The notes under the pieces are model-generated. The model had not been told where the DNA came from and made no database searches. It worked only from the letters and a program-made list of their open reading frames with translations. Below are positions 42,281 to 48,139 of a stretch of DNA of 64,000 nt, piece after piece. The stretch lies in NCBI RefSeq assembly GCF_988242995.1, contig NZ_OZ547043.1. One strand, given 5' to 3'. Positions within the stretch are counted from its first letter, which is position 1; each line of letters begins with the position of its first letter. A program made the position numbers and the translations under genes.

Positions 42281-43201
42281 TTACTCGCCCTTTTTCGCAG
42301 CCTGAATATACAGCATCTCCAGCGCCAGCGTCGCCGCAGCCAGAGCGGTGATTTCCGACTGATCGTATGCCGGAGCCACTTCCACTACGTCCATCCCAAC
42401 AATGTTGAGATCTTTCAGGCCGCGTACCAGTTTAATAGCGCGATCGGAGGTCAGGCCGCCAATTACTGGCGTACCGGTTCCCGGCGCGAAAGCAGGATCC
42501 AGGCAGTCGATATCAAAGGTCAGGTAAACCGGCATATCACCCACAATCTGTTTCACTTGGGCGATAACGTTATCCACGCTGCGATCGTTCACCTGGCAGG
42601 CGTCCAGCACGGTAAAGCCGTTGTCTTTATCGAACTCAGTACGAATACCAATCTGCACGGAATGATTCGGGTCGATCAGACCTTCTTTCGGCGCGGTATA
42701 GAACATGGTGCCGTGGTCAAATTCACAACCGTTCGCATAGGTGTCGGTGTGGGCGTCAAAGTGTACCAGCGCCATTTTGCCGAAATGCTTCGCATGAGCA
42801 CGCAGCAGCGGCAGCGTAACAAAGTGGTCACCACCGAAGGAGAGCATACGCTTACCGGCAGCCAGCAGCTTCTCGGCGTGCGCCTGCAGCTTCTCGCTCA
42901 TCTCACGGGCATCTCCGAAGGCATATACCAGATCGCCGCAGTCCACCACGTTCAGGCGCTCACGCATGTCGAAATTCCACGGGAAGCGGTTGTGTTCCCA
43001 GGCCAGATTCGTCGAAACCTGACGGATAGCAGCCGGACCGTGGCGTCCACCCGCACGACCAGAAGTGGCCATATCGAACGGCACGCCAGTAATCACCCAG
43101 TCAGCATCGCTGTCATATGGCTGGAAGTTCATCGGCAGGCGTAAAAAACCAAAGGCGTTGGAAACCAGTGAGTTATCGTATTGATGACCTAAGGTGCTCA
43201 T
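42281..43201 (-). CDS. speB: Agmatinase, 306 aa
   Basis: [43 protein letters not shown]... matches SpeB. Confidence 0.95.
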
Positions 43202-43336: not shown

Positions 43337-44068
43337 CTATTTCCGACACGGTGGCGGCGCATAGCCATTGTTGTCCGCCGGAAAGGCTTGTCCAGAGCAC
43401 GGCGGCAGCGCGTTTTGCGCCGGGCCTTGTAATTCAAAGGCGGCAAAGCCGATTACACCGGTATTACGCACATCGCCTTGCGCCGAATTGGCTGCGTAGG
43501 AATCAGCAACGTTGGCGAACTGAAAAGCCGCTTCGGTATGTTTATCTTTGCGGAATCCTTTAATCGCTAACGAATCTCCGGCATTCACAATATAGCCGTT
43601 GTTATTCAGCGAACCTTGCTTGCCGTTCAGCACATCCAGGCCATCAACCGTAGCAACGATCTCGTAGTTGGTATTACGACTGTAATTGCGGACATATAAT
43701 TGATAATTCATTCCTACTCTGGCATGGACAATATAGCGTGGTTCATTATTTGACGAATCATAAACCCGCGTAATAGGTAGAGAATTAAAATTACCATCGC
43801 GAATAGCATATTCAAGTTCGTTAATACGAATGCTATAAACGCGGTCGTAGCCCGAAGGAACAGTAGTCGAATAACTAATAACGATCATCTCTGCCGGATC
43901 GCGCCAGACTCGTTCAGCAGATACGCCCTGAACCGATGAGTGCACATCCCCACCCCAGGCGGTGCCGACATTGCCTGATGCACTGCTATTATACTGCGCA
44001 TTACTGGAACAACCGGCCAGCAGCACGGCTAATGCTATCAACGCGCTACGTACTTTCCATTTTTTCAT
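43337..44068 (-). CDS. Lipoprotein of unknown function, 243 aa
   Basis: GAGGGAA Shine-Dalgarno; signal peptide with lipobox MKKWKVRSALIALAVLLAGCSS; no family recognised. Confidence 0.6.
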   Translation of the reverse strand: MKKWKVRSALIALAVLLAGCSSNAQYNSSASGNVGTAWGGDVHSSVQGVSAERVWRDPAEMIVISYSTTVPSGYDRVYSIRINELEYAIRDGNFNSLPITRVYDSSNNEPRYIVHARVGMNYQLYVRNYSRNTNYEIVATVDGLDVLNGKQGSLNNNGYIVNAGDSLAIKGFRKDKHTEAAFQFANVADSYAANSAQGDVRNTGVIGFAAFELQGPAQNALPPCSGQAFPADNNGYAPPPCRK

Positions 44069-44213: not shown

Positions 44214-46190
44214 TTATTCATCTTCAAGATAGGTATAACCGTACAAACCTGCCTCGAACTCTTCAAGGAACTGTTGTTGCAGTTCAGCATCAAGATCGGT
44301 TTTCTTCACTTGATCACGGAACTGGGTTAACAACGTTTTCGGATCGAGCTGTACATATTGCAGCATATCCGCCACGGTATCGCCTTCGTCAGACAGTTCT
44401 ACTTCTACGCTGCCGTCAGGGAAGACGAACACGTCAACCGCTTCGGTATCACCGAACAGGTTGTGCATGTTGCCGAGGATCTCCTGATATGCGCCGACCA
44501 TGAAGAAACCGAGCATCGGCGGATTCTCTGGATCGTACTCCGGCATTGGCATTGTCGTGGCAATACCATCACCATCAATATAGTGATCAATAGCACCGTC
44601 AGAGTCACAGGTAATATCCAGCAGCACAGCGCGGCGTTCCGGCACTTGATCCAACCCTTCCAGCGGCAGAACCGGGAACAACTGGTCGATCCCCCACGCA
44701 TCCGGCATCGACTGGAACAGCGAGAAGTTGACGTACATTTTGTCCGCCATACGTTCCTGCAGCTCGTCGATAATCGGACGATGAGCACGGTTTTGCGGAT
44801 CCAGCTGCTTTTGCACTTCATGGCACATGCTCAAATAAAGCTGCTCAGCCCATGCGCGTTCTTGCAGGCTAAAGGTGCCGGAAGAGTAGCCGATATGAAT
44901 ATCGTGCAGATCCATCTGGCTGTCGTGTAACCATTCACGCAGAGAACGGCGAGTTCCCGGTTCGTGCATCTCCTGCCAGGTTTCCCACATGCTTTGCAGG
45001 GCGCGCGGTGCGTCTTCTGCAGGTGCGGTCGGCACCGTGTATTCGTTACGTTCCACGCCGATGATATTGGACACCAGCACGGTGTGATGCGCAGTCACCG
45101 CACGACCCGACTCGGTGATTACTGTCGGATGTGGCAGACCATTTTCTTCACACGCATCACCAATCGCCCAGATGATGTTGTTAGCGTATTCATTGAGGCC
45201 GTAGTTCACCGAACAGTCGGACTGCGAACGGGTGCCTTCATAGTCCACGCCCAGACCGCCGCCGACGTCGAAGCACTGAATATTGACGCCCAGCTTGTGC
45301 AGCTCAACATAGAAACGCGCGGATTCACGAACGCCTGTCGCGATATCGCGAATATTCGCCATCTGCGAACCGAGGTGGAAGTGCAGCAGTTGCAGGCTGT
45401 CGAGACGCCCGGCTTCACGCAGCGTTTCAACCAGTTGCAGTACCTGAGTCGCCGCCAGGCCGAACTTCGATTTTTCCCCGCCGGAGGACTGCCATTTACC
45501 CGAGCCCTGCGACGCCAGACGTGCACGCACGCCCAGACGAGGAACGACATTCAGACGTTCTGCTTCATCCAGCACAATGGCGATTTCTGACATCTTCTCA
45601 ATGACCAGATAGACCTTGTGCCCCATCTTCTCGCCAATTAATGCCAGGCGGATATATTCGCGGTCCTTATAACCGTTGCAGACGATGACGCTACGGGTCA
45701 TGCCAGCATGTGCCAACACCGCCATCAACTCCGCTTTGGAACCGGCTTCCAGGCCCAGCGGTTCGCCCGAATGAATCAGGGACTCAATCACGCGGCGGTG
45801 CTGATTAACTTTGATCGGATAAACGAGGAAGTAATCGCCGTTATAGCCGTAGGATTCCCGCGCACGTTTGAACGCGGCGTTAATAGAACGCAAACGGTGC
45901 TGCAGGATCTGTGGGAAACAGAACAGTGCAGGCAGACGCTGGCCCTGTGCTTCACGAGTTTTCACTAACTGCGCGAGATCGACGCGAGCTTCCGGGACGT
46001 CCGGGTCCGGGCACACGCTAATGTGGCCCAGCTCGTTAACGTCATAGTAGTTATTGCCCCACCAGGCAATATTGTAAGTACGCAGCATCTTGCTGGCTTC
46101 CTGGGAGCTCATTGCAACCTCCTGCATGGAGCGTAGTACACCGTGTTCGCCCGCTGACGAAGGCAAACCCATAGACATGTCGTCAGACAT
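44214..46190 (-). CDS. speA: Biosynthetic arginine decarboxylase, 658 aa
   Basis: [45 protein letters not shown]... matches SpeA. Confidence 0.95.
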
Positions 46191-46198
46191 AGCGAACC

Positions 46199-46330
46199 TC
46201 AAATTATTTTATTAAGTGTAAAACAGTTAACGACTATCGCAGCCTGGAACTGCGATAACAACCCATAAGCACATGGATTTTCCAGCAGTGAATGCTGACG
46301 CTCCAACTGCGCAACCGGTTTCTTTTTCAT
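46199..46330 (-). CDS. yqgB: Small protein YqgB (43 aa) directly upstream of speA
   Basis: Hand translation gives [43 protein letters not shown]; below the ORF-track size cutoff. Confidence 0.7.
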
Positions 46331-46465
46331 AACATTATTAAGCACATAACCGAACGTAAGTGTGACAGTTCGGCGAAACCACGAGAAAACTCTTGTTTTT
46401 ACAAGAGCGCCCTTGTTCAGTCCTCAGTAGCTGTAACCAGCTCTTGAATCCTGAGAAGCGCCGAG

Positions 46466-46681
46466 ATGGGTATAACATCGGCAGGTATGCAAAGCAGAGA
46501 TGCAGAGTGCGGGGAACGAATCTTCACCAGAACGGTGAGACAGGTTAAGCAGCAGACAACGGTTCATTATTTCGTATCACCTCCACGGCCGCCTGTTAAG
46601 ACGAACCCACAAGCCAAAACTCTGATTTCAACCCGGCTGGAAGTGGCAACACGAAAAAAACGTCGTGTGCTTTTTATTTAA
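46466..46681 (+). CDS. yqgC: Small uncharacterised protein YqgC, 71 aa
   Basis: Matches the remembered YqgC; coding status itself is doubtful. Confidence 0.4.
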
Positions 46682-46929
46682 GCCGCGCGCCGCGTTTTAT
46701 ACCCCACAATGGCAGAAAATTGCAAAAGATAAATACGCAGAATGCCAGCATTGTCAGGAAAAATTTCCAGCCACGTTTTTAACAGAATGAGACACGATTC
46801 AAAAAAAAGTGGAAATTGGGTGAAGAACTGACCTAAAATAGCCATCCAGATGTTAATCCATCCATACCGATTAACACTCAGACTGCCAGTGTTTTTAACC
46901 TGCAGAGTCGTGGTAGGATCCGCTACCAC
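46678..46929 (-). CDS. yqgD: Small uncharacterised protein YqgD, 83 aa from a GTG start
   Basis: Matches the remembered YqgD; coding status doubtful. Confidence 0.4.
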
Positions 46930-46984
46930 AGAAGATCCACACAACAGTTTGAGCTAACCAAATTCTCTTTAGGTGATATTAAAT

Positions 46985-48139
46985 ATGGCAAAACACCTTT
47001 TTACGTCCGAGTCCGTCTCTGAAGGGCATCCTGACAAAATTGCTGACCAAATCTCTGATGCCGTTTTAGACGCGATCCTCGAACAGGATCCGAAAGCACG
47101 CGTTGCTTGCGAAACCTACGTAAAAACCGGCATGGTTTTAGTTGGCGGCGAAATCACCACCAGCGCCTGGGTAGACATCGAAGAGATCACCCGTAACACC
47201 GTTCGCGAAATTGGCTATGTGCATTCCGACATGGGCTTTGACGCTAACTCCTGTGCGGTTCTGAGCGCTATCGGCAAACAGTCTCCTGACATCAACCAGG
47301 GCGTTGACCGTGCCGATCCGCTGGAACAGGGCGCGGGTGACCAGGGTCTGATGTTTGGCTACGCAACCAATGAAACCGACGTGCTGATGCCAGCGCCTAT
47401 CACCTATGCACACCGTCTGGTACAGCGTCAGGCTGAAGTGCGTAAAAACGGCACTCTGCCGTGGCTGCGCCCGGACGCGAAAAGCCAAGTGACTTTCCAG
47501 TATGACGACGGCAAAATCGTTGGTATCGATGCTGTCGTGCTTTCCACTCAGCACTCTGAAGAAATCGACCAAAAATCGCTGCAAGAAGCGGTAATGGAAG
47601 AGATCATCAAGCCGATTCTGCCGGCTGAATGGCTGACTTCTGCCACCAAATTCTTCATCAACCCGACCGGTCGTTTTGTTATCGGTGGCCCGATGGGTGA
47701 CTGCGGTCTGACTGGTCGTAAAATTATCGTTGATACCTACGGCGGCATGGCACGTCACGGTGGTGGTGCATTCTCTGGTAAAGATCCATCAAAAGTGGAC
47801 CGTTCCGCAGCGTACGCAGCACGTTATGTCGCGAAAAACATCGTTGCTGCTGGCCTGGCCGATCGTTGTGAAATTCAGGTTTCCTACGCAATCGGCGTGG
47901 CTGAACCGACCTCTATCATGGTGGAAACTTTCGGTACTGAGAAAGTGCCTTCTGAACAGCTGACTCTGCTGGTACGTGAGTTCTTTGACCTGCGTCCATA
48001 CGGTCTGATTCAGATGCTGGATCTGCTGCACCCGATCTACAAAGAAACCGCAGCATACGGTCACTTTGGTCGCGAACATTTCCCGTGGGAAAAAACCGAC
48101 AAAGCGCAGCTGCTGCGCGATGCTGCCGGTCTGAAGTAA
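46985..48139 (+). CDS. metK: S-adenosylmethionine synthetase, 384 aa
   Basis: [45 protein letters not shown]... matches MetK. Confidence 0.97.

Follow-up and report, generated by a model that had tools for sequence, protein, structure and literature searches.

Translation up to the speA start: yqgB as a candidate cis-acting leader ORF

What is the function of a 43-codon ORF that stops a few nucleotides before the gene for the biosynthetic arginine decarboxylase? The question is raised by yqgB, directly upstream of speA in a window of 64,000 nucleotides (the whole stretch of DNA analysed, from contig NZ_OZ547043.1 of assembly GCF_988242995.1). The gene itself is already known, and so is its candidacy as an upstream ORF (uORF) for speA: Adams et al. 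2021 (PMC7815308) place yqgB-speA among uncharacterized candidate uORFs. What is new here is comparative evidence, drawn from aligned loci, that the peptide appears unconstrained while the frame and its stop are kept. The reading that we prefer, and to which we give an even chance, is that yqgB is a translated uORF in a conserved speA leader of some 500 nt, where selection would act on translating up to the speA start and not on the peptide.

46199-46330, minus strand: yqgB ORF, 43 codons plus TGA (from sequence, translation, RefSeq, Pfam/NCBIfam and 79 species)
46197-46201, minus strand: TGAGG, in which the yqgB stop (46201-46199) overlaps the speA Shine-Dalgarno GAGG (46200-46197) (from sequence)
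46183-46190, minus strand: ATGTCTGA, comprising speA AUG1 (46190-46188) and a second fixed stop, TGA, at 46185-46183 (from locus comparison)
44214-46190, minus strand: speA, biosynthetic arginine decarboxylase, 658 aa, downstream of yqgB

The yqgB ORF and the speA leader

On the minus strand, yqgB reads from an ATG at 46330-46328 to a TGA at 46201-46199, with 43 sense codons, and a gap of 8 nt (GGTTCGCT) separates its stop from the speA ATG. The initial annotation had given no strand; read in this direction, its 43-residue translation is matched exactly, its 8-nt distance between yqgB stop and speA ATG is borne out by the sequence, and its gene name agrees with RefSeq, PF11036 and NF033844. 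The stop forms part of the speA Shine-Dalgarno (TGAGGTTCGCTATG), and TGAGGTTCGCTATGTCTGACGA is invariant across the Enterobacteriaceae loci except for single substitutions in Kosakonia and Citrobacter sedlakii. The ORF listing extends the frame to a GTG at 46345 (48 aa); RefSeq annotates the 43-codon ATG form as yqgB (WP_001297406.1, "acid stress response protein YqgB"), with speA, yqgG, yqgD and metK as the flanking genes.

Membership of the YqgB family is supported by scores above the curated cut-offs, both for Pfam PF11036 (E=4e-33, 113.3 bits, cut-off 24) and for the equivalog model NCBIfam NF033844 (E=6e-26, 90.1 bits, cut-off 35), and by the position of a ~43-aa ORF directly upstream of speA in Enterobacteriaceae. 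The 43 residues and the site 8 nt upstream of speA are identical to those of E. coli K-12 yqgB (b2939; PF11036; NF033844). The window is E. coli DNA. Of 5426 complete genomes of this species, 5425 have a 601-bp region containing the ORF, and in 5413 it is at least 99% identical. Kept in this way in E. coli, matched by Pfam and NCBIfam and present in 79 of 79 species, the 43-codon ORF is more than a product of chance. The role that we read for it, that of a cis-acting uORF, differs from what the database names ('acid stress response protein', 'virulence promoting factor') imply.

Inspection of the sequence upstream of the start revealed no Shine-Dalgarno for yqgB; the start lies within an A/U-rich stretch that is predicted to be unpaired in the consensus fold. 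The cell-free method INRI-seq detected the yqgB start codon, which in vivo Ribo-RET had not. A two-codon mini-ORF, ATG-TTA-TGA (46327-46335, minus strand), precedes the gene, its stop overlapping the yqgB ATG (ATGA). At most Enterobacteriaceae loci this site reads ATG-ATA-TGA, some have TTG and a few have none; it could be a coincidence or a start-stop element.

The leader extends well upstream of yqgB and holds a second annotated uORF.

46331-46688, minus strand: upstream part of the speA leader, with the 5' end of Adams et al. (46688), yqgG and two hairpins
46424-46567, minus strand: uORF yqgG, 47 aa, with a strong conserved Shine-Dalgarno (GGAGGTGA) (annotated)
46466-46681, plus strand: antisense ORF yqgC (annotated)
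46389-46408, minus strand: terminator-like hairpin between yqgG and yqgB (compensatory changes)
46350-46373, minus strand: second hairpin between yqgG and yqgB (compensatory changes)

In Adams et al. 2021 (PMC7815308), the speA 5' UTR was cloned from a 5' end equivalent to window position 46688, for a leader of ~500 nt, and a northern legend in the preprint of that work names a probable yqgG-yqgB-speAB transcript. From about -520 to +120, the speA leader is highly conserved in nucleotides throughout. We found yqgG in 73 Enterobacteriaceae loci (43-64 aa), with its 3' half almost invariant in DNA; in Yersinia it is gene-called with Pfam PF23505, and a tagged yqgG protein has been examined by immunoblot in the literature. 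In the case of yqgC, ribosome density was absent and the protein undetectable (Weaver 2019). The hairpin at 46408-46389 resembles an intrinsic terminator, with the invariant UUUUCUCGUGGUUUC after it; the passages of the Adams 2021 supplement that were consulted give no Term-seq 3' end at this site, which may serve in attenuation or in the architecture of the leader.

On the other side of speA, a 243-aa ORF with a lipoprotein-type signal (MKKWKVRSALIALAVLLAGCSS) occupies 43337-44068 on the minus strand, between the end of speA (44214) and speB (42281-43201), and is labelled as a hypothetical protein in RefSeq. In K-12, speB comes directly after speA, so the speAB operon may be interrupted by inserted DNA here.

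How far the frame, the stops and the peptide are conserved

A scan with the SpeA N-terminus yielded loci from 80 Enterobacteriaceae species, 79 of which have upstream DNA, and exact SpeA look-ups added nine further Enterobacterales loci from the Erwiniaceae, Yersiniaceae and Pectobacteriaceae (Erwinia, Mixta, Pantoea, Serratia, Rahnella, two Yersinia, Dickeya and Pectobacterium). All 79 Enterobacteriaceae loci contain the yqgB ORF, which begins with M[K/N]xKP and measures 42-91 aa (43 aa in 53 species). Conservation of the reading frame across this family, which the initial annotation had proposed as a check, is therefore found at every locus where it could be looked for. When the nine outgroup loci are included, the frame is open in 88 of 88 cases until it meets a TGA at either of two fixed sites, in TGAGG (-8 relative to the speA ATG) or in ATGTCTGA (+8), and a stop within a few nucleotides of the downstream start, as expected of translational coupling, is likewise kept in all 88. 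The +8 stop ends the 47-49-aa variants, some insertion-bearing forms and all nine loci from outside the Enterobacteriaceae; it is unused in this window. Frame-changing indels in the variable tail switch the ORF between the two stop-bearing frames, and the upstream ORF is never fused to speA.

Stop codons are avoided in this frame specifically. From the column composition, 9.4 stops are expected in the yqgB frame and none is observed, a value reached in 0 of 2000 column shuffles; as the shuffles treat the species as unrelated, this overstates the significance. The other two frames contain as many stops as expected, and 26 of the 39 distinct variable tails, which are AT-rich, have stops in another frame. 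The frame ending at +8 is also open in all nine outgroups, over 36-70 codons, other frames being mostly open for 17 codons or fewer.

The start codon is less stable than the frame. The homologous ATG is kept in four outgroups (Serratia, Rahnella, Mixta and Pantoea, with 46-47 aa) and lost in the other five. Of these, GTG or TTG starts are all that is left in Erwinia amylovora, Dickeya and Pectobacterium, and both Yersinia (L085, L090) have a CTG at the homologous position, with an in-frame stop after 11 codons. The Yersinia start region, ~140-100 nt upstream of locus position 1501, would allow only short GTG/TTG ORFs; both species retain the downstream CTGCGATAGTGGCTGAC block and an open frame to +8. 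Taken together, the frame-specific avoidance of stops, the open frames of the outgroups and the initiation seen in vitro indicate that the yqgB frame is probably maintained by selection, that is, translated.

GC-rich insertions occur in the 3' part of yqgB, between AACTG and the retained TAYACACTT-type motif, in Intestinirhabdus, two Enterobacter species, Kosakonia and Atlantibacter, and lengthen the ORF to 55-91 aa. They measure ~130-145 nt (L029, L055, L078), 51 nt (L032, L036, L050, L077) or 36 nt (L046, L065, L074), and all lie upstream of locus position 2501. Upkeep of the frame through the large insertions was considered as evidence and set aside as weak, since GC-rich inserts leave two of the three frames open.

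While the frame is kept, the peptide behaves differently. Among 69 distinct sequences, the summed entropies at codon positions 1, 2 and 3 of yqgB are 20.8, 22.3 and 21.5, that is, the three positions are equally variable. For comparison, in codons 51-200 of speA, third positions carry ~6-12 bits per 10 codons, and positions 1 and 2 mostly less than 1 and less than 0.5 bits. The dN/dS ratio (NG86) in the yqgB frame is 0.86 over codons 1-39 and 1.1 over codons 9-20. The values of the two remaining frames, 0.86 and 0.64, are not higher than these; that of speA is 0.014, with a dS of 0.865. Within the conserved blocks of the peptide, synonymous positions vary hardly or not at all, and these blocks lie on predicted RNA helices. 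These substitution patterns indicate that YqgB is free of selection at the amino-acid level, and that its conserved blocks are constrained as nucleotides. Pfam YqgB recognises the Serratia peptide (27 bits), and the ORF peptides of Rahnella, Mixta, Pantoea and Pectobacterium have no Pfam YqgB match, though the position of the ORF is kept.

The initial annotation had held that synonymous sites with a pattern unlike that of coding sequence would speak against it, and such a pattern is what we found (dN/dS of 0.86-1.1, no codon periodicity); this counts against a selected peptide, not against translation. The pattern also does not fit a ligand-sensing arrest or leader peptide of the SpeFL, TnaC or MdtU type. 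Such peptides have a motif conserved at the amino-acid level, typically C-terminal, and in yqgB the motif is displaced by insertions and missing in several families. Nor does the ORF look like an amino-acid attenuator of the trpL/hisL type, as it has no conserved Arg codons or Arg run and residue 11 is variable. No intrinsic terminator was found between yqgB and speA, the sole terminator-like site being upstream of yqgB.

Predicted RNA structure within yqgB and around the speA start

If the conserved blocks are constrained as nucleotides, the question arises as to which structures they may form.

46260-46321, minus strand: structure in the 5' half of yqgB, with an outer stem AACC.G/U.GGUU, a middle stem and an inner hairpin CAGC/GCUG (46298-46282) (prediction)
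46310-46307 with 46272-46269, minus strand: middle stem inside yqgB (compensatory changes)
46234-46258, minus strand: inverted repeat or hairpin UUAUCGC-N11-GCGAUAG, encoding the peptide blocks 'LLS' and 'AIV' (no covariation)
46215-46220, minus strand: UACACU, yqgB codons 38-39, with predicted pairing to GGUGUA (no covariation)
46145-46197, minus strand: predicted AUG1 hairpin, AUG1 and speA codons 2-4 (arm 46197-46180) with codons 11-16 (46160-46145) (no covariation)
46137-46142, minus strand: GGUGUA, speA codons 17-18, 3' partner of UACACU (predicted pairing)
46110-46123, minus strand: internal speA start, AGGAGG, 5 nt, ATG (Met27, 46112-46110) (invariant sequence; INRI-seq paper citing Ribo-RET)

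RNAalifold on 67 sequences, followed by explicit pair counting, gave a consensus structure of 62 pairs that is 98.8% paired. Over the whole structure, changes on both sides of a pair occupy 50 cells, as against 14.7 in shuffles (0/500), and are far above those of versions with slid partners. In the middle stem inside yqgB, three pairs are changed on both sides, as where 44 sequences have A-U and 17 have G-C; because pairs of this stem change on both sides, the Q8R change in YqgB tracks an RNA pair. The UUAUCGC/GCGAUAG hairpin has seven pairs, five of which never vary and two of which change to G-U only; with no covariation, this predicted helix is unproven. UACACU is invariant in the 67 aligned sequences, and a TAYACACTT-type copy, with one-base variants, is kept beside the speA start even in the insertion-bearing species.

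The predicted AUG1 hairpin comprises 16 pairs, of which 12 are invariant and three change only from U-A to U-G, and its loop consists of the variable SpeA codons 5-10. Within speA codons 1-27, four of nine four-fold sites are invariant, all of them in predicted arms, versus 0 of 60 in the gene body. The stretches in which YqgB and the SpeA N-terminus vary are those that form the loops of the UUAUCGC hairpin, the UACACU clamp and the AUG1 hairpin. Helices 6, 8 and 9 of the pair count, those at the speA start, never covary, and it is conservation by itself that argues for them. The E. coli fold around AUG1 is not significantly more stable than shuffles (z = -1.13). The AUG1 hairpin is the minimum-energy fold in most Enterobacteriaceae tested and in Erwinia, the folds of other families differ, and an alignment of mixed families did not recover it. 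Rfam gave no covariance-model match at E<=1 in 45900-47100.

As a separate observation, speA codons 5-10 are free at the amino-acid level, and codons 2, 12, 14 and 18 are invariant at four-fold sites. The INRI-seq paper describes an internal speA start at Met27 that yields a shorter SpeA isoform, and the perfect AGGAGG of this start sits in the loop of a small conserved hairpin. From the make-up of the first 27 codons, it seems that the long and the short SpeA isoform are controlled separately.

Two other kinds of site were considered and set aside, a PurR operator and, more provisionally, a promoter. Regulation of speA by PurR would be conceivable. A candidate PurR operator under yqgB codons 3-8 has five mismatches to the ideal palindrome, and the palindrome ACGCAAACGTTTGCGT has no match with three or fewer mismatches anywhere in the window. 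A promoter within yqgB, TTAACT-16-AATAAT (46230-46203), would have its -10 element in the variable tail, and a transcript starting there would lack the speA Shine-Dalgarno. TACACT could be taken for a -10 element, but its pairing with the invariant GGTGTA is a better explanation of this motif.

A proposed coupling in cis to speA, and the rival explanations

How could translation of a peptide without amino-acid selection serve speA? On the model that we propose, speA AUG1 and codons 2-4 would be paired with codons 11-16 in the free RNA, and UACACU at the end of yqgB would clamp this hairpin through GGUGUA in speA codons 17-18. A ribosome that reaches the end of yqgB would open both the clamp and the AUG1 hairpin's 5' arm, and would terminate atop the speA Shine-Dalgarno (UGAGG) or, in other species, 5 nt past the AUG. 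AUG1 would then be usable, either by reinitiation or by a fresh 30S subunit, and the ribosomes so loaded on speA may counteract Rho-dependent premature termination ~57 nt into the gene. The Met27 start would be independent of yqgB, because it has its own strong Shine-Dalgarno. A Rho-dependent 3' end is given in the Adams 2021 supplement, 57 nt into speA (K-12 3085854, Rho score 3.09, flagged 'uORF'); by our own conversion of coordinates it corresponds to about window position 46133 and falls just downstream of the GGUGUA clamp arm.

The model thus predicts that yqgB is coupled in cis to the initiation of speA. Of its parts, our comparison establishes the ORF with its two conserved stops, the missing selection on amino acids and the constraint on nucleotides; the transcript, the Rho-dependent 3' end and initiation at yqgB in vitro come from published work; and we infer the structure-opening step, the activating direction, the link to Rho and any signal that is sensed. 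Of the roles suggested by the initial annotation, coupling to speA translation fits the frame open to the -8 and +8 stops, the avoidance of stops in this frame only and the literature on uORFs. A small regulator, in the sense of one acting in trans, is unsupported, the peptide showing no amino-acid selection.

The kind of mechanism, a uORF or translational coupling in the leader of a polyamine gene, is already known, as for mdtU and speFL. In classical translational coupling, the downstream gene is reached by termination and reinitiation or by unmasking of its ribosome-binding site, as at the trpE-trpD overlap and in secM-secA. Like these, yqgB has its stop a few nucleotides from the downstream start, and the downstream initiation region is predicted to be paired within reach of the upstream ribosome; unlike them, its upstream cistron is a short leader ORF and not a gene for a functional protein, and the coupling is a predicted one. 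In the case of mdtJI, the further factor in premature termination is said to be spermidine. SpeFL is reportedly a conserved ornithine-sensing arrest peptide, a result attributed to Herrero del Valle et al. 2020. The mdtU-mdtJI leader (Adams et al. 2021, PMC7815308), in which a section title ties premature termination to a further factor, shares with yqgB a small translated ORF in a polyamine-related leader and Rho-dependent termination downstream. In contrast to mdtU, yqgB has its stop on the speA ribosome-binding site, a peptide without amino-acid selection and no known ligand. The speFL (orf34)-speF leader (Ben-Zvi et al. 2019, PMC6386406) likewise places a leader ORF before a decarboxylase of polyamine biosynthesis in Enterobacteria and controls downstream expression, as yqgB would for speA by our reading. 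YqgB differs from SpeFL in having no conservation at the peptide level, and it was not arrest-like in a screen for arrest peptides (PMC11890864).

Three other explanations were weighed against coupling in cis. YqgB may be a small protein that acts in trans, through some partner, to promote acid and colistin tolerance, its adjacency to speA reflecting mere co-expression; we consider this quite improbable. It has curated Pfam and NCBIfam families, and Adams 2021, citing Hemm 2008, counts it among experimentally validated small ORFs. Phenotypes of a deletion have been reported in Salmonella by a 2026 study, which treats the peptide as a drug target. In that study, however, deleting yqgB lowers the mRNA of both speA and speB as well as arginine decarboxylase and spermidine, and colistin killed the mutant less when putrescine or spermidine was added, which fits an action in cis; the terms 'complement' and 'polar' are absent from its text. 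The phenotypes agree with speA expression being lost in cis, and could equally be explained by the removal of RNA elements rather than by lost translation. Overexpression of YqgB does elicit a cellular response in the arrest-peptide screen (PMC11890864), but this is an induction of heat-shock (aggregation) proteins, not the cold-shock response of arrest peptides, and was attributed to accumulation and aggregation of the peptide. A protein acting in trans is also hard to reconcile with a dN/dS of 0.86-1.1 and equally variable codon positions, with conserved residues that rest on nucleotides invariant even at synonymous sites and matching RNA helices, and with a peptide that is unrecognisable or truncated in other Enterobacterales.

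Alternatively, the uORF may be repressive or regulatory: a ribosome paused on UGAGG would block the speA Shine-Dalgarno, or the nascent peptide would sense polyamine, arginine or agmatine, and in either case, in the manner of SpeFL or MdtU, the position of the ribosome would determine both the access of Rho and the translation of speA. The overlap of the yqgB stop with the speA Shine-Dalgarno, the Rho-dependent 3' end just downstream, the same logic in the polyamine-related mdtU-mdtJI and orf34/speF, and a block near the C-terminus (AIVVNCFTL) conserved within Enterobacteriaceae all agree with this scenario. We nevertheless think it unlikely, as deletion lowers speA expression and does not raise it, and YqgB was grouped with aggregation-type and not with arrest-type responses. 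Moreover, the C-terminal block does not vary even at synonymous sites. Several genera have insertions of 36-144 nt between this block and the stop, Dickeya, Pectobacterium and Erwinia have lost it, and there is neither a conserved Arg run nor an intrinsic terminator between yqgB and speA. Just as unlikely, in our judgement, is an incidental ORF, in which a structured non-coding leader (helices, possibly protein-binding sites) would contain a stop-free frame by chance. Such an ORF would need no coding signature, no Shine-Dalgarno and no Ribo-RET peak in vivo; nucleotide-level constraint would account for its conservation, and its start codon could be lost, as it is in several families. Yet chance would not confine the avoidance of stops to this frame, including the AT-rich tail, where 26 of 39 variants have stops in another frame, nor keep the same frame open for 36-70 codons in nine diverged outgroups; initiation has also been seen in vitro, and detection of the protein is reported in the literature.

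Coupling in cis may be part of a larger arrangement. More tentatively than for the coupling of yqgB, we propose that the whole leader of ~500 nt (yqgG, yqgB, at least four conserved helices and the AUG1 clamp) could be one cis device that answers to a signal, for instance polyamines, arginine/agmatine or pH, by setting both Rho read-through into speAB and the amount of long relative to short SpeA. In that case YqgB would be without a function in trans, and the 'acid stress' and colistin phenotypes, as well as its proposed use as a drug target, would trace to lowered speA expression.

The comparative result calls for caution over the names in the databases and over treating the YqgB protein as a target. 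If yqgB works only in cis on speA, its phenotypes would be polyamine (SpeA) phenotypes, and the peptide would be no meaningful target. If coupling in cis is true, it would offer a concrete account of how arginine decarboxylase is controlled post-transcriptionally and how the cell chooses between two SpeA isoforms.
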